A stretch of 64,000 bases of DNA, taken from assembly GCA_048268105.1 (NCBI GenBank), contig JBLWWH010000004.1, positions 89,209 to 153,208 on the forward strand, in the 5' to 3' direction. This document shows positions 11,626-42,900 of this stretch, piece after piece. A program made the position numbers and the translations under genes. The stretch comes from Weeksellaceae bacterium (lineage in GTDB: Bacteria > Bacteroidota > Bacteroidia > Flavobacteriales > Weeksellaceae). Under the pieces are notes generated by a model. That model had not been told where the DNA came from and searched no databases. It saw nothing but the letters and a program-made list of their open reading frames with translations. Each line of letters starts with the position of its first letter. The first letter of the stretch is position 1.

Positions 11626-11757
11626 AAATTTCTGTTAATGTACAAAGATAGAAAGTATGTTGTAAAATGATGAGCAATATCGCTCAAAATTCTAAGTCAA
11701 TGTCTATTTGTCTTTTATGCTGATGTATTATTTTTTACCTTTGTAAAAAAGGTTTAT

Positions 11758-12033: not shown

Positions 12034-12045
12034 TTTACAGCATAG

Positions 12046-12077
12046 AAAAAGCCGCTTGAAAAGCGGCTTTCTTGTTT
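12046..12077 (+). terminator. Rho-independent terminator (AAAGCCGCTT-GAAA-AAGCGGCTTT)
   Basis: An inverted repeat plus T-rich tail follows the 11758-12033 CDS. Confidence 0.55.
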
Positions 12078-12079
12078 AG

Positions 12080-12153
12080 TGACCACGGAAGGAGTCGAAC
12101 CCTCAACCTTCAGAGCCGTAATCTGACGATCTATCCAATTGATCTACGTGGCC
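12080..12153 (-). tRNA. tRNA-Arg (anticodon ACG), 74 nt, no encoded CCA
   Basis: The reverse complement reads GGCCACGTAGATCAATTGGATAGATCGTCAGATTACGGCTCTGAAGGTTGAGGGTTCGACTCCTTCCGTGGTCA. The 7-bp acceptor stem is GGCCACG/CGTGGTC. The T-loop is TTCGACT. The anticodon loop TTACGGC gives anticodon ACG. Confidence 0.9.
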
Positions 12154-12189
12154 ATTTACGGGGTGCAAATATACAATTATTTTTAAATT

Positions 12190-13293: not shown

Positions 13294-13387
13294 TACATTT
13301 AGACTATTTTTGATACTAAAATCGCTAAACTTTAGCTAATGTTGAGCAAATTCGTTTTCAAACAATAAAATATCTTATTTTAGCTTT

Positions 13388-15241: not shown

Positions 15242-15244
15242 TAT

Positions 15245-16000
15245 ATGATTTTAGTAGTAAATATTGGTAACTCTAGTATTAGATTTGGGGTTGGAGAAAA
15301 CCATAAGAATCTAACCTCTTGGACTATCAACACCAAACCATTTAAAACGGCTGATGAGTTGTTTTTGATGTTCAAGAATATGTATGAACAACATGGTATC
15401 GACAAGAATCAAATCAAAGGGATTGTTATTGGCTCGGTGGTTCCACATCAAACAGGAATTGTTGCTAGGGCCTTAAATGAGATTCATAGTATAGAAGCCA
15501 TGATTGTCGACCGAAACACCAAATCCAATGTAGTTCAACATTCAGATCAAATGGGCACGGACTTGTATGCAAATGCAGTAGCAGCACATGAGTTATATCC
15601 AGATAATAAACTGATTATTGATTTCGGAACAGCATTAACCATTCTTGGTATCGATGCTTCAGGTGAAGTTATGGGTGTTGTAATTGCGCCGGGTGTAATT
15701 ACTTCCTTAAAAGCTCTGGTGGGAGATACCTCACAGTTGCCAGACATTGAATTGGCGCCCCCTAAATCGTCTTTAGGTAAGAATACAGAAGCTTGTATGC
15801 AAAGCGGGATGGTATATGGCTACATTGGAATGGTAGAAGGATTAATCGCGCGCATTAAAAAGGAGTTTAACAAAGATTTCTACGTGATTTCAACCGGTGG
15901 CTTGGGGCATATTTTCAATCCATTAACCGATAAGATTAATAAAGATGATAAACTGCATACTTTGCGAGGTTTATGTTTGTTGTATGAACAGAATATGTAA
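15245..16000 (+). CDS. coaX: Type III pantothenate kinase
   Basis: The N-terminus MILVVNIGNSSIRFGV has the ASKHA-fold phosphate-1 motif of CoaX. It is 251 aa. Confidence 0.85.
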   Translation: MILVVNIGNSSIRFGVGENHKNLTSWTINTKPFKTADELFLMFKNMYEQHGIDKNQIKGIVIGSVVPHQTGIVARALNEIHSIEAMIVDRNTKSNVVQHSDQMGTDLYANAVAAHELYPDNKLIIDFGTALTILGIDASGEVMGVVIAPGVITSLKALVGDTSQLPDIELAPPKSSLGKNTEACMQSGMVYGYIGMVEGLIARIKKEFNKDFYVISTGGLGHIFNPLTDKINKDDKLHTLRGLCLLYEQNM

Positions 16001-26837: not shown

Positions 26838-28054
26838 AAGCGCTACCCATAAAAAATAGCCAAAACTTTAAATTTAAAACAAAAATGCAATTTAATCATA
26901 TTGTAAATCACGTTTCTATGAATTTAGTAAAATATATTAGTTTATTCATATTATTGGTTTTTATTTCTTCTTGTTCAAACGAAAAAGAAGAACAGAATTT
27001 AGCCTCAACAGACGCTCCAACAGAACTTAAAGACAATCAAATATCGGTGAGCCAACAGCAATTTGACATGAATGAAATGCATTTGGTGAAAGGTGAGGAG
27101 CGCAATTTTCCGGCGAGTATTCCCGTCAACGGAATGATAGACGTTCCGCCGAGATATAAAGCGGTAGTGTACGCTACCACAGGTGGTTACATTAATACTT
27201 CTAATTTTATGGAAGGAGATTATGTCCGCAAAGGTCAAGTGATTGCAACGATTGAAAATCCAGAATTGGTGACGATGCAACAAGAATATCTGGAATTGAG
27301 TCAGGATTTAAATTATTTAAAAACCGAAATGGATCGACAAAAATTGATGTATGATGAGAAAATCACAGCGCAAAAGAATTATTTAAAAGCGCAAAGTGAA
27401 TACAATACCGCCAAAGCGAGACACAGCGGTTTGAAGAAGCAATTAACTTTATTTAATATTTCGCCTACCCAAGCTGCTCGTGGAAACTTCTCTTCTGCCG
27501 TGAATATTTATGCACCGATTGCAGGTTATGTCATGCGCGTAAATGTTATCAAAGGAACCCATGTTTCGCCTTCCACAGAGATTTTAGAAATTGTGGATAA
27601 CAATCATTTACATGTTGAATTAACGGTGTTTGAAAAAGACGCTATGAACATTGAAAAAGGTCAAAAAGTTTTGTTCAGCATTCCAGAAATGGCGGCAACT
27701 CCCTTTGAGGCAGAAGTTTATTTAATCGGAAAAACCATCGATGCCGACCGAACCGTTCGGGTTTTTGCCCACTTGAGCCAGGAAGATAAAAACAAATTCT
27801 TAACCGGAATGTTTGTAGAAGCCGAAATCGTCACAAAAGATAACCACGGAATAGCTTTGCCAGAAACGGCAGTAGCAGAAATAGATGACAGTTTCTTTGC
27901 TTTGAAATTAAAAGAAAAAGCAGAAGATGCTTATCTTTTCGAAGAAGTTGAAGTAGAGGTAGGCGAAACCAAAAATGGATTTACCCAGATTACATCAAAA
28001 ATAGATTCCACCGCACAATTCTTGGACAAAGGTGTTTATGAACTGGTGCAGTAA
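26834..28054 (+). CDS. czcB: Efflux RND periplasmic adaptor (membrane fusion protein, CzcB/HlyD family)
   Basis: The start overlaps the czcA stop by ATGA. The lipoprotein-like signal is LFILLVFISSC (an alternative start lies at ~26918). Biotinyl/lipoyl-like and beta-barrel MFP motifs are present (QVIATIENPELV...YAPIAGYV). Confidence 0.78.
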   Translation: MKALPIKNSQNFKFKTKMQFNHIVNHVSMNLVKYISLFILLVFISSCSNEKEEQNLASTDAPTELKDNQISVSQQQFDMNEMHLVKGEERNFPASIPVNGMIDVPPRYKAVVYATTGGYINTSNFMEGDYVRKGQVIATIENPELVTMQQEYLELSQDLNYLKTEMDRQKLMYDEKITAQKNYLKAQSEYNTAKARHSGLKKQLTLFNISPTQAARGNFSSAVNIYAPIAGYVMRVNVIKGTHVSPSTEILEIVDNNHLHVELTVFEKDAMNIEKGQKVLFSIPEMAATPFEAEVYLIGKTIDADRTVRVFAHLSQEDKNKFLTGMFVEAEIVTKDNHGIALPETAVAEIDDSFFALKLKEKAEDAYLFEEVEVEVGETKNGFTQITSKIDSTAQFLDKGVYELVQ

Positions 28055-28109: not shown

Positions 28110-28856
28110 TTAAGAAAGTTTGCGTAAATTTTCTTCTAAACGTGCAATTCTATCTTCAAAATCTTCCACTTTGTCTGGAATCCTTCTGTAGAAAACATAT
28201 CGAATTCTCCAGAGTTCTTTTATGTCTTTGTGGTCAATCCGAATATCGTCGATGCTTTTATGGTCCGCCCGAAGAATAATACCGTGAGAGGTAGTGAACA
28301 TTCTGCGAAATATCAGTTGATTTTCAGCTAGTACCAAAACTGGGGTTCCATTATTTAATTTTTTAATCACACTTTTAGGTGTCCATTCACCAATCACAAC
28401 ATCTTTTGGAAAAAAACCATTGTCGCGATCGGTCATTTCTAAATCTGTAATCGTATAAGCTCGAAATCGCTTTTCTGAATTAATCGGTAAACGCAAACTC
28501 GGCATATCTTGAATAAACTTGGTTTTATCTGCGTTTAAGATATATTCTTTGGCGTTATTTTCAGTGATACATGGGATAGAAGGAAAACTTTCTTTCATGG
28601 TTTCGTCAGCACCCAATGTTAATTCACCTTTAAATTTCAACAATTGATTAACGGTTAACTCTTTCGTTAGCAAATCATCTATGGGAATGCTAAAGTAATT
28701 AGCAATATTAATAATCGTATCGATTTTTGGTTCACTTCTTTCTTCTTCATAAGCACCTAAAGTCGCTCGTTTTAAGTCAAATAGCTCTGCAAAACTTTGC
28801 TGTGAGAGAGATTTAATTCCACGAATCTTTTTTATATTTTTTCCAAAAAATGACAT
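28110..28856 (-). CDS. XRE-family helix-turn-helix transcriptional regulator with C-terminal LexA/S24-peptidase-like domain
   Basis: The N-terminal HTH_XRE is IKKIRGIKSLSQQSFAELFDLKRATLGAYEEERSEPKIDTIINIANYFSIPIDDLL. The C-terminal ~140 aa have an S24-like beta pattern (VLVLAENQLIFRRM...GIILRADHKSI). Confidence 0.6.
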   Translation of the reverse strand: MSFFGKNIKKIRGIKSLSQQSFAELFDLKRATLGAYEEERSEPKIDTIINIANYFSIPIDDLLTKELTVNQLLKFKGELTLGADETMKESFPSIPCITENNAKEYILNADKTKFIQDMPSLRLPINSEKRFRAYTITDLEMTDRDNGFFPKDVVIGEWTPKSVIKKLNNGTPVLVLAENQLIFRRMFTTSHGIILRADHKSIDDIRIDHKDIKELWRIRYVFYRRIPDKVEDFEDRIARLEENLRKLS

Positions 28857-28878
28857 ATTTTGCTAATATTATTTGCAC

Positions 28879-28894
28879 AATTAAAATTTTAATT
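28879..28894. promoter_or_regulatory. Perfect 16-bp palindrome AATTAAAATTTTAATT in the divergent promoter region (candidate operator of the XRE/S24 regulator)
   Basis: The palindrome lies 23 bp upstream of the regulator start codon (minus strand). It is in the 260-bp region shared with the ybjN-like/pspA operon. Confidence 0.45.
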
Positions 28895-29116
28895 TATCTT
28901 TGCGCTAAGATTATTGTCAAATATCTGGAAAACTGAAGTGTAATGCAAATAAAATTAGATAAATCATGATATTAATTATTATCAAACTCATCGAAATCTT
29001 CATTAGTCTCTTCGTGTAGAGATAAAATGATTAACAATTAAAAATTTCCGTATGCAATTCGGGAAAATAGAATAATTTAAACTAAATTCATCCAATCAAA
29101 TAAAAAACCCAACATT

Positions 29117-29512
29117 ATGAATGATAATTTCCAAATGGTGAAAAATTACTTAACCGACCTTAAGTATGAAATATCCTTTGAAAACAAGGAAGAAGGCATC
29201 ATGGTCATTCAAAAAGAAAGTAATGGTGTAAGAAACCTAATTTTAGGAGTTGCAACACCGATTTTAATTTTAGAGCAATTTATTTTTAAAATTAACAACC
29301 AATCAGAAATGATTTTTAAAAGTTTATTGCAAAAAAATCGTGATATCATCCATGGCGCTTTTGTGTTGGAAGAAACAGGAGAAAAAGTAATCTTCAGAGA
29401 TACACTTCAGTTGGAGAATTTAGATTTAAATGAATTAGAAGCTTCGCTGAACTCGCTTGGTTTATTGCTGAGTGAATATGCTGACAAAATTATTGAATTC
29501 TCAAAATACTAA
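29117..29512 (+). CDS. Small cytosolic protein, YbjN/T3SS-chaperone-like fold candidate (PspA-associated)
   Basis: It is 131 aa. It ends 18 bp upstream of pspA. Weak resemblance to YbjN-family proteins. The assignment is tentative. Confidence 0.35.
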   Translation: MNDNFQMVKNYLTDLKYEISFENKEEGIMVIQKESNGVRNLILGVATPILILEQFIFKINNQSEMIFKSLLQKNRDIIHGAFVLEETGEKVIFRDTLQLENLDLNELEASLNSLGLLLSEYADKIIEFSKY

Positions 29513-29530
29513 CAATTAAAAACAAACAAA

Positions 29531-30241
29531 ATGAATATTTTTAAAAGACTATTTAAAATAGGTGAATCAGAAGCGAATGCTGCGATTGACAACATGGAAG
29601 ATCCCATTAAATTAACCGAACAATCTATTCGTGATTTAAAAATGGATTTAAGCAAAAACTTGGAATCTTTAGCACAAGTGAAGGCTTTGGCTATTCGCGC
29701 CAATAACGACAAAGAAAACTATGAAAATGAAGCCGAAGAGTTTCACAACAAAGCTATTCTTATCGTTAAAAAAGGTCAATCAGGAAGTTTAGAAGTAGAA
29801 GAATCCGACCGATTGGCGCAAGAAGCTTTGGTGAGAAAAGAAGAAAAGTTATCTCTTGCGAAAAACGCTAAATTAGAATCAGAGAAAATTCATGGTTCTG
29901 TTCAGGAATTGGAATCTAATATTGCACAATTAAAAAGCACCATCAGCAATTGGGAAAATGAGCTGAATACGCTGAAAGCACGCGTGAAAGTGAGCAAAGC
30001 CAAAACCAGTTTAAACAAACAAATGGCAGAATTGGACAGTTCTGGTTCGGTGGCGATGTTGGAGCGAATGAAAGAAAAAGTAGCGCAGCAAGAGGCTTTG
30101 GCAGACGCCTATGGTGATATCGCCAAAAACTACAAACCCATTGATGATGCCATTGACAAAGCTGCAGATTTCAGCAAGGAAAATGCAAAAGATGCGTTGG
30201 AGAATCTCAAAAAACAATTGAACCAAAACAAAGACGCTTAA
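29531..30241 (+). CDS. pspA: PspA/IM30/Vipp1-family protein (phage-shock protein A; ESCRT-III superfamily)
   Basis: It is a 236-aa all-helical coiled-coil. The N-terminal amphipathic helix is MNIFKRLFKIG and the IM30 pattern ...AIDNMEDPIKLTEQSIRDLKMDL... is present. Confidence 0.8.
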   Translation: MNIFKRLFKIGESEANAAIDNMEDPIKLTEQSIRDLKMDLSKNLESLAQVKALAIRANNDKENYENEAEEFHNKAILIVKKGQSGSLEVEESDRLAQEALVRKEEKLSLAKNAKLESEKIHGSVQELESNIAQLKSTISNWENELNTLKARVKVSKAKTSLNKQMAELDSSGSVAMLERMKEKVAQQEALADAYGDIAKNYKPIDDAIDKAADFSKENAKDALENLKKQLNQNKDA

Positions 30242-30244
30242 ACC

Positions 30245-30958
30245 GTGAACGACTTTATTGATTTAGTATTTTCAACTGTAAACCTTCCGCTGAGTTTATT
30301 GCTTATCATCTTAATTCTCTATTGGATTTTTACGATGATCAGCGGTATCGACTTCGACCTCGATTTTGATGTGGATATCGACATCGACACCGATTTTGAT
30401 TTGGACATGGACGCTGGCATAGAAGGTGGAAATGCGGATTTTGAAGATGTAGCCAGCACAGAAATTAACCAAGAAGATATTGTCGGTCGAAGACAAAAAC
30501 CCCTGAAATGGTGGCAAGTTTTTCTTATTTATTTCAATTTTGTGGGTTTGCCTTTTATGTTCACGTTCACAGTCTTTGTGTTTGCTTGGTGGTTTATCAC
30601 CATGGTGACAACAGATTTAACTTTTTCGGCAAATCATTGGGTAGGCGTTATTATATTTATATTAGCCATTATTCCCGCACTTATTTTCACTAAAATCTTC
30701 ACAACTCCTTTCAAAGCTTTCTTTGCTAAATTGAACAAAGATGGCGACCAAGCCATTGATTTCTTAGGCAGAAAAGGCACCAGTTTATCCACTATTAAAG
30801 ACGATAAAATGGGAAGAGCAGAAATTATGGTCAATGGAAGCCCCATGAACCTGTATATCAAATCATTGCATGGTGAAGAAATAGCTTATCATCAAAGTAT
30901 TTTAATCATTAAAGAATCATCAGATAAAAACTTTTTTTACGTAGAATCCTATAACTAA
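30245..30958 (+). CDS. YqiJ/NfeD-like inner-membrane protein (DUF1449-like) with C-terminal OB-fold, partner of flotillin
   Basis: It has TM helices and a C-terminal soluble beta domain (GRKGTSLSTIKDDKMGRAEIMVNGSPMNLYIKSL). It is positioned like yqiJ upstream of the yqiK-type flotillin. It contains the acidic D-x-D repeat. Confidence 0.55.
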   Translation: MNDFIDLVFSTVNLPLSLLLIILILYWIFTMISGIDFDLDFDVDIDIDTDFDLDMDAGIEGGNADFEDVASTEINQEDIVGRRQKPLKWWQVFLIYFNFVGLPFMFTFTVFVFAWWFITMVTTDLTFSANHWVGVIIFILAIIPALIFTKIFTTPFKAFFAKLNKDGDQAIDFLGRKGTSLSTIKDDKMGRAEIMVNGSPMNLYIKSLHGEEIAYHQSILIIKESSDKNFFYVESYN

Positions 30959-30965
30959 TAATTAA

Positions 30966-33035
30966 ATGAACTCAATTTTAACCATTGTCATTGTAGCCAT
31001 CGTGCTCGTCCTCTTTTTGGTGATTGTCTATTTCGCCATTATTGCCATGTTCTATCGCAAAGTACCACAAGGTGAAGCGCTCGTAAGAACTGGATTTGGA
31101 GGAATTAAAATCGCAACCGATAAAGGAATGTATGCTATTCCAGTCTTGCACAAAATAGAAATCATGGATATTTCTGTAAAGAAAATCCAAATTGAAAGAA
31201 CACATACAGAAGGTCTTGTTTGTCGAGATAATATGCGAGCAGACATAAAAGTAGCCTACTTTGTTCGGGTAAACAATGAAGTCGATGCCATTAAAAAAGT
31301 GGCACAAACCATCGGTTGTAATCGCGCTTCTGACATTGAAACCTTGCGCGATTTATTCGAAGCTAAATTTTCTGAAGCTTTAAAAACCGTGGGTAAAAAA
31401 TTCGATTTTATTGAATTATATGAAGCACGTCGTGAATTCCGGGATGAAATCGTGAATATTATAGGCACAGACCTAAATGGTTATACCTTAGAAGATTGTG
31501 CGATTGATTATTTGGAGCAAACGCCGCTTGAATATTTAAAACCAGATAATATCTTAGATGCAGAAGGAATTAAAAAAGTGACAGAATTAACGGCCGTTCA
31601 GAATATGAAAGCCAATTTCATTAAAAGAGATGAAGAAAAAACCATTCGCAAACAAGATGTAGAGGCGCGCGAGGCTATTCTAGAATTAGATAAACAATTG
31701 GCGGAAAAAGAAGAACAACAGAAACGTGAAATATCGAATATCCAATCTCGGGAACATGCAGAAATCCTGAAAGTAGCTGAAGAAGAAAGATTAAAATCTG
31801 AAACGGCACGAATTGCAACAGAAGAAAAAGTGAAAGTTGCAGAAGAAAATATGTTACGACAAATTATTGTTGCCGAAAAGAATAAACTCCGTACAGATGC
31901 TGTTGAAACCGAGCGAGTTGAAAAAGATAGAATGCTAGAAGCAACTGAACGTGAGCGAATTGTAACTTTAGCGCAAATAGAAAAAGAGAAAGTTGTTGAG
32001 GTAGAGAAAAAGAATATTCAAGATGTGATTCGAGAGCGAGTTTCTCTGGAGAAAGGAGTTGTGCAAGAGCAAGAAAACATGAAGGATATCGAAGCTTTTA
32101 AAACTGCAGATCGTGAGAAACAAGTGAAAATCACCGTCGCTGAAGGTAATGCACAAGAAGATTTGATCAAAGTAATCAAAGCCGCAGAAGCCGCCAAAGA
32201 AGCTGCAAAACAACGCGCAGAAGAAATAAATATCGAAGCACAGGCACACAAAGAAGCCAGTGAAAAAGAAGCAGAAGCTCGTAAAACTTTAGCCGAAGCC
32301 AAAGCCAAAGAGGATGCAACGCTTGGATTAGCAGAAGCCCAAGTGATGCATGCCAAAGCAGACGCGAACGAAAGAGAAGGATTGGTGAAAGCCTCTATCA
32401 CAGAGAAACAAGCACTTGCCGAAGCCAAAGGAATTGAAGCCAAAGCCGATGCAAAACGTAAAGATGGTATTGCTGAGGCCGATGTGATCAAAGAAAAAGC
32501 ATTGGCGGATGCCGCTGGAATTGTTGAGAAAGCAGATGCCATGAAAAAACTAGACGGTGTTGGAAAAGAACACGAAGAGTTTAAGTTGCAGTTAGACAAA
32601 GAATTACAAGTTGATTTAGCGCACATTAATATCCAAAAAGACATTGCCGATGCACAAGCACAAGTGATTGGAGATGCCTTGAAAGCTGCGAAAATTGATA
32701 TCGTGGGTGGCGAAACCATGTTCTTTGATCAGATTATTGGTCAAATTACAAGAGCTAAGGGATTAGATCGTCTTGTAAACCACAGTGAAAATGTGAAACA
32801 AGTGAAGGATGCTTTATTGGGTGGCGATGATGAAGTGAAAGGAAATTTATTGGAAAAAATTAAAGATTTCTCCGATAAATATAATATTTCGTCAGAAGAC
32901 ATTAAAAACTTATCGATTGCTAATTTGATTTTTAATATGCAAAATCAAGCGAAAGATAAAGACGAACAAAACATGTTGTCCAACCTGTTGAATTTAGCCA
33001 AAGGAATGGGTATTGAAAATAAAAAGTTGAAATAA
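30966..33035 (+). CDS. Flotillin-family SPFH/band-7 protein (YqiK-like) with long Ala/Glu/Lys-rich coiled-coil extension
   Basis: The N-terminal TM is followed by the SPFH core (VRTGFGGIKIATDKGMYAIPVLHKIEIMDISVKKIQI). Long EA-rich heptads follow. It is 689 aa. Confidence 0.85.
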   Translation: MNSILTIVIVAIVLVLFLVIVYFAIIAMFYRKVPQGEALVRTGFGGIKIATDKGMYAIPVLHKIEIMDISVKKIQIERTHTEGLVCRDNMRADIKVAYFVRVNNEVDAIKKVAQTIGCNRASDIETLRDLFEAKFSEALKTVGKKFDFIELYEARREFRDEIVNIIGTDLNGYTLEDCAIDYLEQTPLEYLKPDNILDAEGIKKVTELTAVQNMKANFIKRDEEKTIRKQDVEAREAILELDKQLAEKEEQQKREISNIQSREHAEILKVAEEERLKSETARIATEEKVKVAEENMLRQIIVAEKNKLRTDAVETERVEKDRMLEATERERIVTLAQIEKEKVVEVEKKNIQDVIRERVSLEKGVVQEQENMKDIEAFKTADREKQVKITVAEGNAQEDLIKVIKAAEAAKEAAKQRAEEINIEAQAHKEASEKEAEARKTLAEAKAKEDATLGLAEAQVMHAKADANEREGLVKASITEKQALAEAKGIEAKADAKRKDGIAEADVIKEKALADAAGIVEKADAMKKLDGVGKEHEEFKLQLDKELQVDLAHINIQKDIADAQAQVIGDALKAAKIDIVGGETMFFDQIIGQITRAKGLDRLVNHSENVKQVKDALLGGDDEVKGNLLEKIKDFSDKYNISSEDIKNLSIANLIFNMQNQAKDKDEQNMLSNLLNLAKGMGIENKKLK

Positions 33036-33154
33036 AATTAATTATATGTCATGTGGAAATCTTCTGCATGACATTTCCTTCAATCAAACATTCACAGCGT
33101 TAAACATGAAGGAAAATTATATTTTTTATAACGCTATATTTAAAAAATAGTAAA

Positions 33155-33433
33155 ATGAAACCACTTTTAATTTCAAAAAACACAACCCTCATCATAGCGA
33201 TCATGGGAGCTTTAATTAGCATTTTTGGTGCATGGATAAGAATTTATCAGTTTTCGAATAATTTCATACCAAACAGTACGATTTTCCTTTCGATAGGTTT
33301 GGTGATGAGTTTAATTGCATGGTTTGTAGTATTTTATGATATTATGTTAAATCCACTTAGAAATAAATTTTTGTGGATTATTGGGATGTTTTTCGCAAGT
33401 CTCATAACTGTTATTTTTTATTTATTAAGATAA
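33155..33433 (+). CDS. Small 3-TM membrane protein, PLDc_N-like (cardiolipin-synthase N-terminal domain family)
   Basis: It is 92 aa. The C-terminal pattern W...D......NKFLWIIGMFF...IFYLLR matches the PLDc_N motif. Confidence 0.45.
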   Translation: MKPLLISKNTTLIIAIMGALISIFGAWIRIYQFSNNFIPNSTIFLSIGLVMSLIAWFVVFYDIMLNPLRNKFLWIIGMFFASLITVIFYLLR

Positions 33434-33525
33434 ACACATGATTAGAAAAGATATGAACTTTTAAATTTCACTTCCTTACATCTCGCTAGAATTGTCAACA
33501 AACACTAAAATTAATCGCATTTATA

Positions 33526-36500
33526 ATGCCTGAAACTACCCAAAACATTGCCTCTGGAACCTACGAAATCATTCGTAACCGACTTCATCAGCACAAAGAT
33601 GATTTGCAGAAACGCTTAAATTCATTGAATGCGGAGCGCCAGAAAGTCTTTGGTTCGTTGGAGACCAAGTTGATTGCAAATGATAGAATTAACACCGACA
33701 ACAGTTGCATTGCAAGCGATATTATATCCTTAGATAACCTGTGTATTTTTGGGTATAATGTTCATTTTGGATTACGCACAAAAATTCAGTTAAATGATGT
33801 TTTTAGTATTTATGAATTCAGTGAAAATCAATTTCATCCTAAATCTTTGGAATTAATCAATGATTCTACTTTTATTATAGATTTCACCAATCTTTATAAA
33901 TATTACAGAAATACATTTTTCACCCGATTTGCGATTATAGGTAATTATCTGCACATGGTTTTTCAGCTCAGTGAAAATGTTTCTGACATCAAAACATTTA
34001 AGTGGTTGATTAATGATCAAACCCTGACGTATGTTGATAACAGAAGCGAACACGAGTATAAATTCCCAGCGCAACACGAATTTCGTTGGCAATCGGTTGG
34101 GCGCGAAATGCACCGTTATGGAACTTTTCCCCACGCATCGATTTTAGATAAAGTTTTTGTGGAAACCATTGGTGGTGATCTTACGATTAAAATAGAAGAC
34201 AATACAGAAGATGGCGAAGGAATCTATTCAGAACCCGTAGAATATGCGGATCAAACCCTAGATGACGGACAAATCAGATATGCAGATTTAGGGAATCTTA
34301 TTGTTTTTGAGGTCAAGCCATTTCAAGAGAAATCACGCTATTTTGTTTATAATCATAAACTTAGAGAAGTAAATAAAATTGATTCCTTGGGCGATGCTTG
34401 TATTTTATTGCCAGACGAACAAGGAATTATTTTCCCGACAGGATATTATTTGCAAACCGGTGAATATTATTTGTTTGATAATGTGATTCCAGAAATTAAA
34501 TTTGCTCAAAAAATACTTTCGCCCAATGGAGAAGATGTGCTTTTTGTTTTTTATTTGCCCAAAGAAGGATTGTACAATTTGATGTCGTATAATGTGATTT
34601 CGCAGGAGATTTTGACGCCGATTATTTGTAGTGGTTTTACGATTATTAAAGATGGTGAATTATGTTATTTCAAAAGTGAAGAAGAACAAACCCGCCATCA
34701 TCTCATCCAAATTTGGCAAACTCCCTACTTGAAAGGTGAATTTGTTCCAACCGAACACAAAGATAATTTTTTATATAAAGTAGGTAATAAGGACATTGTG
34801 AAAGCCATGGCAGAAACCCATGCTTTGATTACTTTGTTAAGTAAAGAAGATAATTATGCGGGTTTATATGCTGATATCACCAAGTCTGCCAAAAATATAG
34901 CAGATGCATATTATTGGATTTCAGATGATAATGCTTTTGCATTATCTGCGCCTTTAAAAGAAATTCAAAATGCAGCCAAAGCGGCGATTGATGAATTTGA
35001 AAAAGTAGTTCAATTTAAGAAGAATGCAGAAGCGCAAATCAAAGAAATTCAAACGAAATCTAAAGCTTTATTTAGTAAAATAAAAGGTTCGTCTTTCAAG
35101 AATATAGATGATTTTGTTCAATCTTTAAGTGGTTTACGTAACCTGCGGGGTGAGGTGATTACGCTAAAAGAAGTTCGTTATATCGACACCGATATTTTGG
35201 CTGAAATTGAACAGGAAATCGTAGAAGAAACCGAGCGTTTATCTCAAAAATCGGTTCATTTTTTATTAGAAGATAAAGCCCTTGATCCTTATCATGAAAG
35301 AGTTAAAGAAAAGGAAAAATATCTGGACGATATAAAAAAAGCCATCGATGCCAAAAATCTCGAAAAAGAAGTAGTTCAAATTGCGACAGATTTGGAAATG
35401 TTAATCGAAATTGTATCGAATCTTAAGATTGAAGACACTTCGCAATCCACCAAAATCATAGATAATATTTCGTTGATTTTTGCCCATATCAATCAGTTGA
35501 AAGCAGCGATTAAAAATAAAATTAACAACCTGGGCGGCGACGAAGCCAAGGCAGATTTTGCAGCACAAATGAAATTGGTTGAGCAGAGTTTAATCAATTT
35601 GATTGATTTGGCAGATACGCCCGCAAAATGTGATGAATTTCAATCTAAAATTACCGTTCAACTCGAAGAACTCGAAAGTAAATTCGCTGATTATGATGCA
35701 TTTATTGTACAAATCATGGAAAAGCGAGAAGAGATTTATGATGCTTTTGATGCCCGAAAAAATAATTTAATCGAAAGACAAAATCAACGAATTTCAACCC
35801 TTAAAACTTCAGCTGAAAGAATTCTCAAAAATGTTGAAAAAAAGGCAGATACCTTAAAATCTAATGAGGAAATTCATGGTTATTTTGCTTCTGATTTAAT
35901 GGTGAGCAAAGTGCGTGATATCATTGCGCAACTAGAGGAATTGGATGATAGAGGTGGCGCAGAGGATATTTTAACTTCGCTTAAAACAGCCAAAGAAGAC
36001 AGTCTTCGGAAATTGCGTGACAAACAAGATTTATATGAAGATGGAGAAAACATCATCAAATTGGGTGATCATAAATTTGGTGTTAACCGTCAAGCTTTGG
36101 AATTAACCATGTTGTACAAAGACGAAAAACCTTATTTTCATCTCGCTGGAACAGATTATTATCAGAGTTTTGATAATGAAACTTTGGCAGCTTCTAAATA
36201 TTGGACACAAGAATATAGTTCGGAAAACAAACAGGTCTATCGTGCTGAATATCTGGCGTATAAGATTTTTAAAACAAAATCTATGGCAAGCTTAGAAAAA
36301 GCTACTCATGAAGATATGGCGGAATGGATTCAAAAAGAAAGTAGCGAAAACTATACAGAAGGTTACACCAAAGGCGTTCATGATCAGGATGCGTTGGCAA
36401 TTCTGGAAGTGCTGATTCAAAAACATCTCGATTTAAAATTATTGCGTTATAATGCTAAAATCAGAGCGGCAGCGCAATTCTTTTGGTATCAAAAAACGGA

Positions 36501-38376
36501 AGAAGAAAGGTTCGAGAAAAATCGAAAAATTAAATCTGCAGGAGAGATTATTCAACTATTTCCTGGTTCCGATGCTTTTGATTTTGTTTTAAATAGATTA
36601 ATAAATGAAATTTCTATTTTCGCCCAAGAATCTAACTTATTTTCAGCAGACTTAGCCCAAGATATGGCGCAATATTTAATGCAAGAATTGCAGCATGACG
36701 ATGCCTTCCAGATCAGTCAGGCATCTAAGAATATTCAAAATGAAGTTGAAAAATACTTAAAAGAAAAAAATTCTGATATTGCTTTTTACAACGCCATAGA
36801 AAACACACAAAGTTATGTGGAGAAAATAGAATTGGTGCGTCAATATGTTAAAGCTTTTATTCAGTCAAAACCCAAAGAATTTAATCCAAATTACATCGAC
36901 GAAGTCGTTGCCAATATATTATTTTCTGATTTGTCTTATGAGCCGATTAATGCCATTTCAGCGCAAGAAGAAATTAAAGATTTAAAAGGAACTCATGAAG
37001 TTATTCAAAATGGTACGTATCATTTTGATTATCAAGAATTTATACAAAAACTTGGATATTTTCATGATATTGAAGTTCCTGCCTTTGAGCAATTTAGAAA
37101 AGAAAAAGCAAAATTAATTGAGGTTGAAAAAGAAAAATTAAAACTTCATACGTTCCAACCCAATGTGCTTTCATCTTTTGTGAGAAATAAATTAATAGAT
37201 GAGGTTTATTTGCCTTTGTTCGGAGATAATTTCGCCAAACAGTTAGGAACTGCCGATGCCCATCAACGCATAGACCGCATGGGATTGTTGTTGTTGATTT
37301 CTCCTCCAGGATATGGTAAAACTACTTTAATGGAATATTTGGCGAACCGTTTGGGCTTGGTTTTCATGAAAATAAACGGACCTACGATTGGACACGAAGT
37401 GACTTCCGTAGATCCGATGGCGGCCAAGAATTCAGCGGCGAGAGAGGAATTAATTAAATTAAATCTCGCCTTTGAAATGGGCAACAATGTTATGTTGTAT
37501 TTAGATGATATTCAGCATTGTAATCCCGAATTCCTACAAAAATTCATTTCTTTATCAGATGGAACTCGTTCCATAGAAGGCGTTTATAATGGAAGATCGA
37601 AAACCTATAACCTGAGAGGAAAGAAATTCGCGGTGGTGATGGCTGGAAATCCTTACACAGAAAGTGGTGCCAAGTTCCAAGTGCCCGATATGTTGACCAA
37701 TCGAGCCGATATTTACAATTTGGGAGATATCATTGGAAACACCAAAAAGTTATTTGAAATGAGTTTGATTGAAAATGCGATTACCAGCAATGCCGACATC
37801 AGACAAATGAGAAATACATCGATGAAAGATGTTTATCAACTCATAGATAAAGTAGAGAACAATTCAGAAATTGAATTGGAAGGAAAATATTCTCCTCAAG
37901 AAATTAATGATTATACTTCTGTGTTAGAAAAAATGCTGAAAGTGAGAGATGTGGTGTTGAAGGTGAATTCTGCTTACATCAAATCGGCAGCCATGGAAGA
38001 TGAATATCGTACAGAACCTGCGTTTAAGCTACAAGGTTCTTATCGTGATATGAATAAGTTGGTGAGCAAAATTGTTCCTGTAATGAACGATCAAGAATTA
38101 GAAAGTTTATTGTTATCTCATTATGAATCAGAAGCTCAAACTTTGACGTCATCTGCAGAAGCCAATTTATTGAAATACAAAGAATTAACGAATAAGCTAA
38201 CAAAAGAAGAAAACCAACGTTGGAATGAAATTAAAACTATATTTGAGAAAAACAATAAGTTAAAAGGTTTTGGAAATAAAAATGAAATGGCACAAGTTTT
38301 ATCCCAACTCATGAATTTTGGAGAAAACTTAGAAGGAATAAAGGAGATTCTCGCCAAAGGACTCGACTCAAAATAA
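33526..38376 (+). CDS. Giant (1616 aa) multidomain protein with C-terminal-proximal MoxR/McrB-like AAA_5 ATPase core
   Basis: The Walker A is LLISPPGYGKTT (nt ~37303-37323). The Walker B is VMLYLDDIQ (nt ~37495-37509). The sensor pattern is FAVVMAGNPYTESG...VPDMLTNRADIYNL. The N-terminal ~450 aa are beta-rich. A ~350-aa coiled-coil lies between residues 470 and 820. Confidence 0.6.
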   Translation: MPETTQNIASGTYEIIRNRLHQHKDDLQKRLNSLNAERQKVFGSLETKLIANDRINTDNSCIASDIISLDNLCIFGYNVHFGLRTKIQLNDVFSIYEFSENQFHPKSLELINDSTFIIDFTNLYKYYRNTFFTRFAIIGNYLHMVFQLSENVSDIKTFKWLINDQTLTYVDNRSEHEYKFPAQHEFRWQSVGREMHRYGTFPHASILDKVFVETIGGDLTIKIEDNTEDGEGIYSEPVEYADQTLDDGQIRYADLGNLIVFEVKPFQEKSRYFVYNHKLREVNKIDSLGDACILLPDEQGIIFPTGYYLQTGEYYLFDNVIPEIKFAQKILSPNGEDVLFVFYLPKEGLYNLMSYNVISQEILTPIICSGFTIIKDGELCYFKSEEEQTRHHLIQIWQTPYLKGEFVPTEHKDNFLYKVGNKDIVKAMAETHALITLLSKEDNYAGLYADITKSAKNIADAYYWISDDNAFALSAPLKEIQNAAKAAIDEFEKVVQFKKNAEAQIKEIQTKSKALFSKIKGSSFKNIDDFVQSLSGLRNLRGEVITLKEVRYIDTDILAEIEQEIVEETERLSQKSVHFLLEDKALDPYHERVKEKEKYLDDIKKAIDAKNLEKEVVQIATDLEMLIEIVSNLKIEDTSQSTKIIDNISLIFAHINQLKAAIKNKINNLGGDEAKADFAAQMKLVEQSLINLIDLADTPAKCDEFQSKITVQLEELESKFADYDAFIVQIMEKREEIYDAFDARKNNLIERQNQRISTLKTSAERILKNVEKKADTLKSNEEIHGYFASDLMVSKVRDIIAQLEELDDRGGAEDILTSLKTAKEDSLRKLRDKQDLYEDGENIIKLGDHKFGVNRQALELTMLYKDEKPYFHLAGTDYYQSFDNETLAASKYWTQEYSSENKQVYRAEYLAYKIFKTKSMASLEKATHEDMAEWIQKESSENYTEGYTKGVHDQDALAILEVLIQKHLDLKLLRYNAKIRAAAQFFWYQKTEEERFEKNRKIKSAGEIIQLFPGSDAFDFVLNRLINEISIFAQESNLFSADLAQDMAQYLMQELQHDDAFQISQASKNIQNEVEKYLKEKNSDIAFYNAIENTQSYVEKIELVRQYVKAFIQSKPKEFNPNYIDEVVANILFSDLSYEPINAISAQEEIKDLKGTHEVIQNGTYHFDYQEFIQKLGYFHDIEVPAFEQFRKEKAKLIEVEKEKLKLHTFQPNVLSSFVRNKLIDEVYLPLFGDNFAKQLGTADAHQRIDRMGLLLLISPPGYGKTTLMEYLANRLGLVFMKINGPTIGHEVTSVDPMAAKNSAAREELIKLNLAFEMGNNVMLYLDDIQHCNPEFLQKFISLSDGTRSIEGVYNGRSKTYNLRGKKFAVVMAGNPYTESGAKFQVPDMLTNRADIYNLGDIIGNTKKLFEMSLIENAITSNADIRQMRNTSMKDVYQLIDKVENNSEIELEGKYSPQEINDYTSVLEKMLKVRDVVLKVNSAYIKSAAMEDEYRTEPAFKLQGSYRDMNKLVSKIVPVMNDQELESLLLSHYESEAQTLTSSAEANLLKYKELTNKLTKEENQRWNEIKTIFEKNNKLKGFGNKNEMAQVLSQLMNFGENLEGIKEILAKGLDSK

Positions 38377-38419
38377 TAGGTTATCTTTGCCTACATATAA
38401 AATAGTTAAATCTTATAGT

Positions 38420-38923
38420 ATGAAAACAGTAAAAATGATTCTTTTAAGTGTGGCATTTACCGCAGCCCTAGTAAGTTGTAAAAACGAAGCTGCGAACGAT
38501 GCTGATGCCATTGTCTTAACTGAAGATGAAACAAACCACGATGAGCATGCCATGGAAAACCATGATGATATGGAACATCACGATGTCGATGAAAGCGTTG
38601 TGAGTGAGCCTATTTCTTTGAATGATGGTGAAAAATGGGTGGTTAATGAAGAAATGAAACCTTTTGTTTCGCAAGGTGAAAATTTGGTTAATACTTACGA
38701 TGGAGACCATAAGGCGCTCGCTGTCAATCTAACAGAACAAAACAATCAATTGATAAAAAGTTGCACTATGGAAGGAACAAGCCATGATGAGTTACACAAA
38801 TGGTTACATCCACATTTGGAAATGGTGAAAGAATTAGGCGATATGGATCATCAAGAGGCTGCAGATAAGCAAGTAGACGAGATTAAAAACTCATACCAAG
38901 TTTATCACGAGTATTTTCAATAA
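38420..38923 (+). CDS. His/Asp/Glu-rich lipoprotein (candidate periplasmic metal-binding protein)
   Basis: The lipobox is AALVSC. The acidic His-rich run is NHDEHAMENHDDMEHHDVDES. The ORF track starts at 38387, but the signal-peptide Met at 38420 is the more likely start. Confidence 0.4.
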   Translation: MKTVKMILLSVAFTAALVSCKNEAANDADAIVLTEDETNHDEHAMENHDDMEHHDVDESVVSEPISLNDGEKWVVNEEMKPFVSQGENLVNTYDGDHKALAVNLTEQNNQLIKSCTMEGTSHDELHKWLHPHLEMVKELGDMDHQEAADKQVDEIKNSYQVYHEYFQ

Positions 38924-38972
38924 TACACATGGTCTGAAACTAGAGCTATTTTAGAGAGACATATTAATCCAT

Positions 38973-39010
38973 AAAAAAGCCGTTGCAATTGCAACGGCTT
39001 TTTTTTTTTA
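38973..39010. terminator. Bidirectional terminator: A6 plus perfect 20-bp palindrome GCCGTTGCAATTGCAACGGC plus T11
   Basis: It lies between the convergent 38420-38923 (+) and 39026-39817 (-) genes. Confidence 0.7.
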
Positions 39011-39025
39011 GATTTTATATTAAGA

Positions 39026-39817
39026 TTATTTCTTAATTAACTTCTTTGTTACAGTGTTTTTACCGTCCGTAGCAGTAACTAAATATAATCCTGCAGGTAA
39101 ATTAGAAACATCGATTCCATTAGCATCGTATGCTACTTTAGAAACTTGCTTACCGCTTAAGTTTGTTAAAGTAATTTGAACTTTGCTGGTGTTAAAATTA
39201 TCACCTAAATTAACCTTTACTACATCAGTAGCTGGGTTAGGGAATAAAGATAAGTTGCTCTTAGATGCAGTTAAATCATTAGTAGATAATGTTTCAGCAA
39301 CTACTTTTACATCGTCAATAGAGATGTAATCCATATCAATTACGTTATGGTGTCTGAAAGCAATATAAACCTCAGGTTCTCCTGCAAATGCAGATATATC
39401 TAATACCTTATCTACGGGTTGACCTGTGTTCCCTGCATCTCCTAAAGTTTCCGACATTTGAGTTTCAGAAGCTAATAAGTCAACTGTAGAATTAGATGTT
39501 GCAACATATACAGAATAATGCTCCTCATCCCATGCAGCAGCAGGAACTTGAGTGATGTATTGTAGGGTGATTGTACCAGAAGCGGATGATAAATCTATAG
39601 CTGGAGAAATAGCCCAATTATCTGGAGTTAATGGAACACCTTGCCATGATCTAGAAGTTAATGACATTGGAGTTACAGGATTTCCTAATTGATCAGTAAC
39701 TTGATAAATATCCCAATTTTCGCCATCCATATCAGCATCGATCAACGTCCAATCAGAAAGATCTTCATCATTGAAATCATCCATCCAAATGGTTGATTGA
39801 GAATAACCGAAAAGCAT
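39026..39817 (-). CDS. T9SS-CTD cargo protein (paralogue of the 8419-9360 gene); N-terminal signal peptide disrupted by a frameshift in an 8-nt homopolymer (possible pseudogene or phase-variable gene; intact reading would extend to 39857)
   Basis: The C-terminus VFPNPATDVVKVNL...LPAGLYLVTATDGKNTVTKKLIKK is a T9SS CTD. The ORF as called starts at MLFGYSQ and lacks a signal peptide. With one fewer T in T8 (39847-39854), an upstream ATG at 39857 gives MKKTLLSLSLIGGMLFGYSQ in frame. Confidence 0.55.
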   Translation of the reverse strand: MLFGYSQSTIWMDDFNDEDLSDWTLIDADMDGENWDIYQVTDQLGNPVTPMSLTSRSWQGVPLTPDNWAISPAIDLSSASGTITLQYITQVPAAAWDEEHYSVYVATSNSTVDLLASETQMSETLGDAGNTGQPVDKVLDISAFAGEPEVYIAFRHHNVIDMDYISIDDVKVVAETLSTNDLTASKSNLSLFPNPATDVVKVNLGDNFNTSKVQITLTNLSGKQVSKVAYDANGIDVSNLPAGLYLVTATDGKNTVTKKLIKK

Positions 39818-39960: not shown

Positions 39961-42900
39961 CTATTCCTTTATCATAACATTCAGTCCATCGCTATGCGCT
40001 GTGAATTCTGGTGCATACATGTTTTGTAATTGGGTAATTCCATTCGAGAAATTACCAGCATTGTTGGCTCTTAAATCATATTCAAACACATAAACACCTT
40101 TGGGTAAATAATCGATAAAGAAATTTGTTGTCGCGTCTCTTGTACTTTCATAATAGCCTAAACCATCTTGCCATTTAAAGGTACTCAACACATTCACGGG
40201 TTCAAATCCACTCGCGCGCATATCTTTGATATGAACAAATTCCATCGCTCTATCGGTTTGAATTTCTAATCGAACTTTTACCAAATCGCCGATTTCAATC
40301 GGAGCATTTTCGGTTATTTCAAAGAGCTTAGGACCTTGTGGCGTGTTTTTCTGAATAAACAATTGCTTTTTAAACTTAACATTCGTTTCAGCATTTGTGA
40401 TTTTATCTAAATCCTCAAAATACTGCCAATACATCGCGCCCCAAGCAACTCCTGGAGAAGATTTCTCTACTTCGATTTTACCCATTTCTGGTGTGATTTC
40501 ACCTTTGCTCCAGCTTTCTTTTACATAACCACTACCAGATTGAACGTCGGTAGAAGGATTTGTGTTGGCATCATACCAAATAGTATTTCCAACTTTTACC
40601 TTAATTCCATCCTCTGCATTTGTCCAGTCTTTTCCAGTGTTCATTAAGGCATAAACGGCTTCGGTTGTTGCTTTGGTAGAGTTCCATTGATTAGTCTGTT
40701 TATTCTTCAGTAACCACACTTTCATGCTTTCTACGCTTTCCATATCTTTTGGCGTAATCTCATCAAATGCCTCTATTAACAAGGCTTGTGTTTCAACAGG
40801 AGCTTCAAACCATCGGTAACCACTCACATTTTCTTTCCAATACATGCCCATTTCATCTGACTCAACCGAGCGGTCTTTAATAGAAAAAACTAAATCTTTG
40901 GCTTTTTTCTCGTGACCAAATCTATGAAGAGTTAGGGCTAAAAGGGCTTGCGTGTTCAATGCACGATCATATTTTCCTTTATCTAATTCGGTTAAGAAAT
41001 AGTCTTTAGCTTTGCTTAGTTTATTACTTAATGGGTGTGATTCCAAGAAAAAACTTCTAGCATATAACCAATACAAACCATCATAATCACTCAAGAAATA
41101 ACGCTTTTTATCCGCTTGGAATTTATCCCATTTTTTCTCCATTTCATTATCTATAAACTCAATGGCTAATTCTGGAATACTTTCTAAATCTATCGAGATT
41201 TCTGAGTTCTCACTTATGCCCATTTTGGCTAAATGTCCAAATCCAGCTACAATATGTGTTGTGATATAAACATTTTCTTTTCCACCTTCAAACCAAGCAA
41301 AACCTCCGTTTTCTGATTGTTTTTGCTCTAATTTTCTATAGGTATCCTTCAACTCACTGCGCATTTTATTTAAATCAAATAAAACTGCAATTCTCTTCAT
41401 TTGTTCGGTTTCACTTTGCGCATCTCTCACCCAAGGCGTCTCTTCTAAAAGTATATTTTTAAGTTCTTGATTCTCTTCCAAAGGTGAGATTAATTGTCCT
41501 TTACGATTCCAGTCGTCAAAAACAGCTTTAATTTTTGGATTCGAATTTACAATGGATTGAGAAATTAAATTTCCATAAAAACGTGCAAAAACCTGCTCTG
41601 AACAATCATACGGATACTCACGTAAGTAAGGTAGAGCCATCACTGCATACCAAATCGGATTGGTGGTCATTTCCATCGTCAGCTTGAAATTATCTCGCGT
41701 AGCTGAGGTGGTATTCATCAACTTATCAAAAGTGAAGGTTTTTGATTGGTTTTCTCTCACATGGATCGGCATGGTTTCGGTTACCAGCATTCTATTCGTA
41801 AGAATCGGTAAAGCGTTTTCCTCTCCATCAGAAAACTCACCCGTGCTTGCTATCACTCTATAAACTACCGACTGAACTTCGTCTACGTTCGGAACTTCTA
41901 AAGTCCAAGAGACCGTTGAATTTCCTCCAGCTTCAACATCAAAAGTTTGCTGAGATTGGTTCAAGTTAAATTTAGCTTCAATCGGCTGCATGCTAAATGC
42001 GTCAAAAAGCACTAATTGCGCATCACCACTTAAAGCTTTCTCCGAAAGATTGATGATTTTGGTTTTAAAAATAACTTCATCACCTTCTCTGAAAAATCTT
42101 GGTGCATTCGGAACTACCATCAATTCTTTCTGGGTTACAACATCTGCCTGAAAAACTCCGGTTTTTAAATCTTGCGTATGCGCCACCGCTTGAAAATTCC
42201 ATTGGGTTAAACTTTCGGGTGAAGTGAATTCAATTTTCACATTTCCGTTGGCATCTGTTTTTAAATTCGGAAAGAAAAAAGCAGTTTCTTGTAGGTTCTT
42301 ACGTGCTTGAACTTGACTCAAATCTTGTTTTGGCATTGATGATTCTTCAGTTGTAATAACAACAACTCCATTTGCACCTTTTGAACCATAAAGTGCAGTG
42401 GCATCCGAACCTTTTAAAACTGTTATGTTGGCTACATTCATTGCTTCAGCTTCTTTCTTAGAAACTATTCTTCCGTCCACAACATATAGTGCTTCATCAG
42501 AAACGTTGAGGCTATTTAATCCTCTTAATACCATTTTTTTATCTCTTGCTGAATCTTCTATATTCACCCCTGCAACTTCTCCTTCCAAAGCTGCATCCAT
42601 TGTACTTTCTTCCATGACTGGCGCAGGTGCCGCTGCTTTCATCGAATACATGATTTGATGTCTTCTAAATTCATTCAAGGTTAAACCAAATAAATTTAAA
42701 TCTTCAAAGTTTAATGTAGGATAGGTTGTATAATTACGATAATATATTTGATTAAAATAGGTCTTTTGATCAGTCTGCCAATTGTTAAATGAAGAATAAT
42801 TAGACGCGAAAGGGGAGAAATCATAAGGATTTGTCACAAATTCATCTAGCGATTTATCATACATTCCCGCAAGAACTTCTGCTAAGAATTTATCTCCTTT

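Follow-up and report, generated by a model that had tools for sequence, protein, structure and literature searches.

The closest described relative of the gene cluster analysed here is an operon that Ravi et al. (2024; mSystems 9:e00847-23) defined by comparative genomics, in which a CesT/Tir-like protein and PspA are encoded together with a YqiJ/YuaF-type protein, a flotillin and an AAA+ ATPase with beta-propeller and coiled-coil regions. The archetype of this operon is Dokdonia donghaensis ANH61663.1 (their Table S3), which is accompanied by a divergent gene for a cHTH and protease protein, and "related abbreviated operons" lacking PspA were also reported. These authors proposed chaperone-like and ESCRT-like roles in membrane dynamics, drew a Snf7/Vps4 analogy for the PspA-linked AAA+ protein and noted that the way in which PspA homologues control assembly in the absence of an ATPase is unclear. 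Here we have analysed a window of 64,000 nucleotides from a Weeksellaceae bacterium (GenBank assembly GCA_048268105.1, contig JBLWWH010000004.1, positions 89,209 to 153,208), in which six genes on the + strand form a cluster at 29117-38376 that ends with a gene for a giant ATPase. An earlier note, made from the letters of this DNA, had presented the combination as an undescribed system. As Ravi et al. (2024) give the same gene order this was wrong, and since the operon has already been published, as a computational prediction, the window adds no new system: it carries one more orthologue of a catalogued one, with a trivial lineage-specific insert. The membrane-remodelling or envelope role that the note had put forward is also predicted in that work. 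What is added here is that the partner of the ATPase is flotillin/YqiJ and not PspA, that its AAA+ core is not Vps4-like, and that no support was found for its widespread database name, "DNA repair ATPase".

The list of open reading frames (ORFs) of the window gives the six + strand genes at exactly the coordinates and spacings noted earlier, the spacers being 18, 3, 7, 119 and 92 bp in order, so that the first four are tightly packed as had been remarked. They encode a CesT/Tir-like protein (29117-29512), PspA (29531-30241), a YqiJ-like membrane protein (30245-30958), a YqiK-type flotillin (30966-33035), a small PLDc_N-like membrane protein (33155-33433) and the giant ATPase (33526-38376). 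Among the domain calls of the earlier note, those for PspA, flotillin and AAA stand, the YbjN call is weak beside a dominant CesT_Tir_1 match, PLDc_N is below threshold, and the third gene is recognised by a YqiJ profile only.

The conservation of this neighbourhood was followed from the ATPase. A one-genome-per-species scan with a seven-sequence alignment as the query found 596 relatives, of which the best 80, all from Bacteroidota, were kept, and distant lineages were sampled through contig searches and tblastn against plasmids. The ATPase is present in the 80 Bacteroidota loci and a flotillin gene is directly upstream on the same strand in 75; two of the five loci without it have less than 100 bp of upstream sequence, hence the proportion is 75 of 78 informative loci. 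Together with 12 distant loci, the closest relative of the window locus (L089) and a Hymenobacter plasmid (L093), there are 92 informative loci, and in 89 of them the flotillin gene lies directly 5' of the ATPase gene on the same strand. These flotillin-ATPase loci cover at least four phyla (Bacteroidota, Pseudomonadota, Actinomycetota and Deinococcota). The YqiJ-like gene, paired with the flotillin gene, was found in 73 of the 80 Bacteroidota loci, at least 16 of which contain the YqiJ-like/flotillin/ATPase triad only. A PspA gene, on the other hand, is found no farther than 10 kb from the ATPase gene in 60 of the 92 loci. This clustering is not due to chance, the linkage being far beyond it, and because flotillin is adjacent in 89 loci but PspA is near in 60, the conserved partner of the ATPase is flotillin/YqiJ and not PspA. 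The search for ATPase homologues without linked genes, which had been suggested as a check, thus left the linkage unrefuted; the link that had been drawn to a PspA-flotillin module holds for flotillin and YqiJ, and not for PspA as a conserved partner. The triad is the conserved core (Module A), ancient and shared across phyla, whereas the divergent regulator, the CesT/Tir-like protein and PspA form an add-on (Module B) found mainly in Flavobacteriia and Cytophagia.

The distant loci, whose ATPases are 27-38% identical to the window protein, come from six metagenomic contigs, the Pseudomonas fluorescens SBW25 megaplasmid pQBR103, a Streptomyces plasmid, a Deinococcus plasmid and replicons of Proteus mirabilis, Nonomuraea and Vibrio campbellii. 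The flotillin gene is directly 5' of the ATPase gene in all 12, and in nine of them the profile detects a YqiJ-like gene before it. PspA is nearby in two of these loci, and the triad stands without an adjacent PspA gene in the remaining ten. In L082 a convergent PspA gene abuts the ATPase gene, and on pQBR103 (L090, 84.4-97.6 kb) an operon encoding YjfI-PspA-rhomboid-DUF2491-DUF350-DUF1190-glutathionylspermidine synthase immediately precedes the triad in the same orientation; from these two arrangements we conclude that the PspA association recurs independently. Closer to the window, L089 (75% identity) carries the full operon, and so does the Hymenobacter plasmid, where it is annotated as LexA-family / Tir chaperone / PspA / DUF1449 / hypothetical / DNA repair ATPase.

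The third protein of the cluster (237 aa) has no Pfam or NCBIfam match, even at an E value of 10, and pairwise BLASTP detected no similarity to Escherichia coli YqiJ. The relationship appeared when a profile of 13 family sequences was compared with YqiJ by hhalign (probability 91%, E 1e-6, 152 columns), the match extending over the C-terminal domain. PF21001 (YqiJ_N) is matched by 4 of 15 aligned sequences, E. coli YqiJ being one of them, and the Hymenobacter orthologue carries the name DUF1449, which is also the RefSeq name of E. coli YqiJ. Furthermore, both proteins have the same layout, with a transmembrane segment, an acidic DxDxD linker, two more transmembrane segments and a beta-rich C-terminal (NfeD/OB-like) domain, and a crude hydropathy scan found three hydrophobic segments in the window protein. 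The flotillin gene follows after 7 bp on the same strand, which fits an NfeD/YqiJ-SPFH gene pair. Its product (689 aa) matches Band_7 (3e-14, Pfam) and shares 30% identity with E. coli YqiK along some 470 residues (1-467, E 6e-52). It is made up of an N-terminal transmembrane segment, seen as a hydrophobic stretch in the same kind of scan, the SPFH/Band_7 domain, a long helical region rich in Glu, Ala and Lys, and a conserved C-terminal module, "G(K/R)EHEEF(K/R)L ... A.IDIVGGE", which is kept from Flavobacteriia to Streptomyces and Deinococcus. The HEEF(K/R)L region (32400-32700, approximately aa 480-580) is shared by the homologous regions in L082-L092 and falls in a gap of E. coli YqiK, a flotillin not accompanied by an ATPase, and the ATPase-linked flotillins are about 80-145 aa longer than this single comparator. 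It is possible that this module is a partner-specific docking element, a lead that comes from comparison with one unlinked flotillin sequence.

The giant protein (1616 aa) contains DUF3686 (2e-178, aa 26-463) and DUF7902 (1e-25, aa 584-667), followed at aa 1255-1379 by weak and equal matches to AAA (1e-6, 29.3 bits) and AAA_5 (2e-6, 28.6 bits; cut-off 22). From the N-terminus it consists of a helix, a beta-propeller, about 800 aa of helices, the AAA+ core and a helical C-terminus, and as the crude hydropathy scan showed no hydrophobic segment of transmembrane type we describe it as soluble. It has more than 4758 homologues, nearly all in Flavobacteriaceae; the family of its N-terminal 700 aa comprises 908 representative clusters at 50% identity, and full-length members, down to 27% identity, measure 1600-1900 aa. 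A search of PDB sequences with the N-terminal 1100 aa gave no match. In the high-confidence AlphaFold2 model of aa 1-700 (mean pLDDT 86) an N-terminal helix precedes an all-beta part at aa 48-398 (33667-34719) and long helices at aa 415-695, and Foldseek against the PDB returned the propellers of Elp1, the DCAF1 WDR domain, IFT-A, Vps18, TolB and prolyl oligopeptidase (E 5e-7 to 1e-4). The matches to IFT-A and Vps18 could have suggested a protocoatomer-like protein, a reading that we did not adopt as the TM-scores are low (0.14-0.22) and the proteins matched are generic propellers.

The AAA+ core (aa ~1240-1400; 37243-37725) is the most conserved region of the giant protein among 66 diverse representatives. 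Walker A (GKT, 1264-1266), Walker B (D1327-D1328), sensor-1 (N1375) and R1393 can be assigned in it, and the motifs SPPGYGKTT, Y(L/I)DDIQH, MAGNPYTE, PDMLxNRAD and LQGSYR are near-invariant throughout the family, which implies a working NTPase. Walker B (37504-37509) reads hhhhDD in place of the usual hhhhDE in 15 of 15 sequences of the cross-phylum alignment.

With respect to Module B, the divergent regulator (28110-28856, - strand, 248 aa) has a clear N-terminal XRE-type helix-turn-helix (HTH_19 5e-10, HTH_3 4e-9; Pfam) and a weakly detectable C-terminal S24/LexA-like domain, and its Hymenobacter orthologue is annotated as "LexA family transcriptional regulator". The small cytosolic protein of 131 aa belongs to the YbjN superfamily and matches CesT_Tir_1 (3e-55), YbjN (1e-6) and CesT (2e-5) in Pfam, and the protein of 236 aa matches PspA_IM30 (5e-36, Pfam) and, under the equivalog cut-off, TIGR02977 (1e-12). 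PspA is an established member of the ESCRT-III superfamily (Liu et al. 2021, as cited in PMC10936438). The CesT-like gene, present in 57 of the 80 Bacteroidota loci, is always directly 5' of PspA, a dyad that is also present in the window (18 bp apart, one strand), and the CesT-like protein is predicted to be a chaperone or partner of PspA. A regulator orthologue, which occurs with CesT/PspA, is found in 57 and PspA in 56 of the same 80 loci; the three genes are gained and lost together.

Taking these data together, we think it rather probable that the window locus, an orthologue of the operon of Ravi et al. (2024), encodes a predicted envelope-stress and membrane-dynamics system of the phage shock protein type, in which the flotillin/YqiJ assembly is the target of the ATPase. 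If SPFH-NfeD pairs and SPFH cages are a guide, the flotillin would oligomerise at the cytoplasmic membrane, on its inner face, and its partner in the membrane would be the YqiJ-like protein. The giant ATPase would dock there via its beta-propeller and helical arm, and the energy of ATP would serve to build up, remodel or take apart this scaffold or its clients. The HTH/S24-like regulator would repress the operon until envelope stress releases it, and the CesT-like protein may hold PspA under control until it is delivered to damaged membrane marked by flotillin, where PspA could polymerise and seal or stabilise it (compare YdjI for PspA in Bacillus subtilis). To our knowledge, no enzyme is known in bacteria for the assembly or disassembly of flotillin scaffolds. 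We advance as a tentative extension, less likely to be right than wrong, that the DUF3686 propeller/AAA+ protein is a machine dedicated to this ATP-driven assembly or disassembly of bacterial flotillin (SPFH) scaffolds, and that in Flavobacteriia it is wired to CesT-chaperoned PspA as a non-homologous counterpart of ESCRT-III/Vps4-type repair.

Several observations weigh against the envelope-stress reading and its mechanism. Adjacency shows a functional coupling between the ATPase and flotillin/YqiJ, not a mechanism, and three loci (L062, L071 and L073) are true exceptions without an adjacent flotillin gene. The DD of Walker B is not the rule among AAA+ proteins and could entail unusual kinetics, with slow or regulated hydrolysis. 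The Peptidase_S24 match of the regulator is below threshold (E 0.027, 14.6 bits), so that of the XRE/S24 regulator previously described the XRE part is firm and the S24 part is not. The ATPase gene may also not be strictly co-transcribed with the first four genes, because a hairpin follows the flotillin gene, the next two gaps measure 119 and 92 bp, and inserts occupy the junction in about 30 loci. Finally, our literature searches found no mention of DUF3686 and no experimental paper on the operon or on any of its members; those on YqiJ with YqiK and PspA and on "DNA repair ATPase" with flotillin and PspA gave no papers, and that on flotillin with AAA+ ATPase and NfeD gave an FtsH review only.

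The strongest rival gives the ATPase another substrate: it would be a Vps4 analogue that disassembles or recycles ESCRT-III-like PspA polymers, the flotillin being a mere scaffold. The earlier note leaned to this role and Ravi et al. (2024) make the same Snf7/Vps4 analogy; PspA is indeed encoded close to the ATPase (within 10 kb) in 60 of the 92 loci, and this association arose more than once (in the Flavobacteriia operon, on pQBR103 and with the convergent PspA gene of L082). However, triads without nearby PspA exist in at least 16 Bacteroidota and 10 of the 12 distant loci, and flotillin is almost never missing. The fold of the ATPase is also difficult to accommodate. The AlphaFold2 model of aa 1150-1616 (pLDDT 80) has an AAA+ fold in which Walker B and sensor-1 flank a beta-hairpin (aa 1349-1362), and the best Foldseek matches of the core are MCM, NorQ/CbbQ (MoxR), RuvB, ClpA/X and Lon, and not Vps4 or the classical clade; the TM-score of NorQ and CbbQ is ~0.5 when normalised to the target, among many equally ranked fold matches. 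With this hairpin modelled ahead of sensor-1, the fold agrees with MCM, MoxR, RuvB and Clp and not with the classical Vps4/katanin clade. PDB sequence matches of the C-terminal part to classical proteins (VCP/Cdc48 and others) cover little beyond the Walker A stretch, and Pfam found no MIT domain. The AAA+ domain does not belong to the classical type of Vps4, and we regard the recycling of PspA polymers as an unlikely function for it.

An anti-phage or abortive-infection defence of the envelope, turned on by the XRE/S24-like regulator, had been offered as the other possibility. A divergent XRE-HTH/LexA-like regulator next to a large NTPase would suit it, and so would the presence of the system on megaplasmids in several phyla, the variable small genes gathered at the flotillin-ATPase junction (including ORFs that look GIY-YIG-like by eye) and the different flanks of relatives that are 75% identical. 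Nevertheless, the six operon proteins match no model of PADLOC-DB v2, in which only generic HTH models match the regulator, and Pfam revealed no recognisable effector domain, be it a nuclease, protease, TIR, pore-forming or other one. The neighbours are an efflux pump, a type IX secretion system (T9SS) adhesin and an alpha-2-macroglobulin, and not a defence island. Moreover, the 60-68% identity over many Flavobacteriaceae genera, with a fixed gene order, looks like vertical inheritance and not patchy turnover, and on this evidence we find a defence role improbable. That the giant protein should literally be a DNA repair ATPase, beside flotillin for reasons other than a shared membrane function, is very hard to believe: the NCBI family is named so, the Pfam entry for DUF3686 reads "ATPase involved in DNA repair", and the fold of the AAA+ part is similar to that of the DNA motors MCM and RuvB, with weak RuvB_N and NCBIfam RuvB matches, but that likeness is limited to the generic AAA+ core, for which MoxR, Clp and Lon are equally good matches, Pfam, NCBIfam and PDB sequence searches revealed neither a DNA-binding nor a nuclease domain, adjacency to a membrane flotillin in 89 of the 92 loci is not expected for a DNA repair enzyme, and literature searches gave no paper in support of the name.

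The gene between flotillin and ATPase had been listed as a component of the system. Its product (92 aa) is a small membrane protein with three transmembrane segments and a PLDc_N match under the Pfam cut-off (8e-4, 19.8 bits against 23.3). A 109-aa orthologue occupies the matching position in the closest relative L089 (42% identity, E 6e-25), and phmmer found no homologue in the 80 other loci. It is a real gene, a lineage-restricted insert at the genus level and not a conserved component. The flotillin-ATPase gap is shorter than 250 bp in about 45 of 75 loci, and other small genes fill the junction in about 30. In Aquimarina (L004, L006, L008, L010, L013, L014, L016, L029, L033, L063, L065 and L067) one to three tandem paralogous tail-anchored proteins of 80-105 aa are encoded where the window has the PLDc_N-like gene; their consensus is MGGEGAMMQAI..NNSRR..REAF.GW....SQGIKVEPVSEE.LQEIRDKLKKQR followed by a transmembrane segment, their sole Pfam match is a weak one to DUF4711, and a DUF3592-like protein of 117-120 aa often accompanies them. 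The junction ORFs of L023, L043 and L049 (also L016 and L058), of ~96-124 aa, start with MKVYYVYIL.CSD..YTG.T and seem by eye to be GIY-YIG (UPF0213-like) proteins.

The G+C content of the window is about 35%. The intergenic region of 260 bp between the regulator and the operon (28857-29116) presumably contains the promoters of both and an operator, and in it, near 28895, TATCTTTG fits by eye the Bacteroidota -7 motif TAnnTTTG; a sigma-70 scan was uninformative, with 46 sites against 46.9 expected from shuffled sequence. The hairpin after the flotillin gene (33046-33074, + strand) begins 10 nt past the stop codon and has a 13-bp stem (-14.8 kcal/mol, z -2.6), its stability being equalled in 0 of 200 shuffles. 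It is followed by UUUCCUUC, and the terminator scan made no call there. It is possibly a leaky terminator or an attenuator ahead of the downstream genes. The first convincing terminator 3' of the cluster is at 38973-39004 (+ strand), where a 14-bp stem with a T-run has a folding energy of -20.6 kcal/mol (z -6.2) and T- and A-runs lie on its two sides. The first four genes may plausibly share a transcript with the ATPase gene. The gene 3' of the ATPase is different even in the closest relative, L089, and therefore the system ends at 38376.

In the window that next gene (38420-38923, + strand), directly 3' of the ATPase gene and ahead of the strong terminator, encodes a predicted lipoprotein of 167 aa, rich in His, Asp and Glu and with a signal peptide ending in LVSC, which is possibly a metal-binding passenger. 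It had no Pfam match and phmmer found no homologue in the 80 related loci, so that it was rejected as a conserved component. Other neighbours are the efflux pump, the T9SS adhesin and the alpha-2-macroglobulin mentioned above, and a neighbouring gene has a Por_Secre_tail domain. The pump includes a single 1437-aa ORF (22524-26837, + strand) that joins a complete AcrB-type resistance-nodulation-division transporter (ACR_tran, aa 5-1035) to an outer-membrane-factor region at the C-terminus (OEP, aa 1265-1435), and a gene for an HlyD-type adaptor (26834-28054, + strand) overlaps its 3' end by 4 nt. The topology of such a protein, an inner-membrane pump with a TolC-like domain attached, is odd, and the ORF could be a real fusion, a frameshift or an assembly artefact. 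The bacterial alpha-2-macroglobulin (39961-46023, - strand, 2020 aa; MG2, A2M_BRD, A2M and bMG10) also matches the Plug domain of TonB-dependent receptors at aa 1140-1220 (E 1e-6), an unexpected combination.

In other genomes, two distant loci that are unrelated to each other carry a TelA (toxic anion resistance) gene no more than a few kb from the triad: L084 (15502-16608, - strand), where it adjoins a ClpX-like gene, and L086 (5321-6499, - strand). This may be another association with envelope stress. In L062, the ATPase gene (9971-14860) without adjacent flotillin is directly followed by a DUF4178 gene (14936-15481); Ravi et al. (2024) place DUF4178 in a different, polyamine-linked CesT/Tir-PspA operon.

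The near-obligate pairing across phyla makes the giant AAA+ protein a strong candidate for the missing engine of flotillin turnover or of its coupling to PspA. Several carriers are genetically tractable (P. fluorescens SBW25 with pQBR103, Proteus mirabilis, Vibrio campbellii and Streptomyces) and the hypothesis is open to testing in them; pQBR103, a well-studied megaplasmid, is a tractable model for the YqiJ-like/SPFH/ATPase triad.

When the locus is compared with known systems, its YqiJ-like protein with three transmembrane segments and an OB-type domain, followed by a flotillin on the same strand, recalls E. coli yqiJ-yqiK and B. subtilis yuaF-floT, but at the yqiJK locus of E. coli K-12 genes for a giant ATPase, PspA and CesT are absent. 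B. subtilis pspA-ydjGHI (samGHI) shares with the window that PspA is encoded with an SPFH protein, and it is the sole experimental precedent for a PspA-SPFH relation, the SPFH protein YdjI being required there to link PspA to the membrane (PMC8581546; also cited in PMC10936438). The window cluster differs in that Pfam finds no match to YdjG (zinc ribbon/NTF2-like) or YdjH (TPM) in it, and the B. subtilis operon, according to the text of Ravi et al. (2024), lacks CesT-like, YqiJ-like/NfeD and giant ATPase genes. The PspA-NfeD-flotillin module that the earlier note took as known therefore merges separate operons, as yqiJK has no PspA and pspA-ydjGHI has neither NfeD nor YqiJ.

As in the ESCRT-III/Vps4 systems of archaea and eukaryotes, an ESCRT-III-superfamily protein (PspA) is encoded near an AAA+ protein, which suggests ATP-driven membrane remodelling. 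Unlike Vps4, however, the window ATPase is outside the classical clade, is about four times larger and has an N-terminal beta-propeller; it has no MIT match in Pfam and is not consistently coupled to an ESCRT-III gene. The MoxR AAA+ proteins (NorQ and CbbQ) and other AAA+ proteins with an insert before sensor-1 (MCM, RuvB and ClpX) rank among the closest structural matches of its AAA+ core. AAA_5, the MoxR-related family, scores above its cut-off, but PF00004 (AAA) scores equally. A partner gene with a VWA domain is typical of MoxR systems, and none was found with Pfam in the nine ORFs scanned (28110-39817). In addition, and in contrast to MoxR, Walker B is DD and the core is inside a protein of 1616 aa with unrelated N- and C-terminal regions.

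The agreement is closest with the operon of Ravi et al. (2024), whose bacterial family (Flavobacteriaceae) was taken to be that of the window too. The 92-aa PLDc_N-like gene, common only to the closest relative, is extra in the window, and it is not equivalent to the full phospholipase D (HKD) gene that these authors describe in some Proteobacteria. Against the divergent cHTH and protease-like regulator of Dokdonia, that of the window has a clear HTH, a weak Peptidase_S24 match (E 0.027) and an orthologue annotated in the LexA family. The abbreviated version without PspA is also among the loci studied here, the YqiJ/YuaF-type protein with three transmembrane segments, the flotillin and the propeller-helical features of the AAA+ protein are all found in the window, and all five conserved genes of the Dokdonia operon are present in the same order and orientation.

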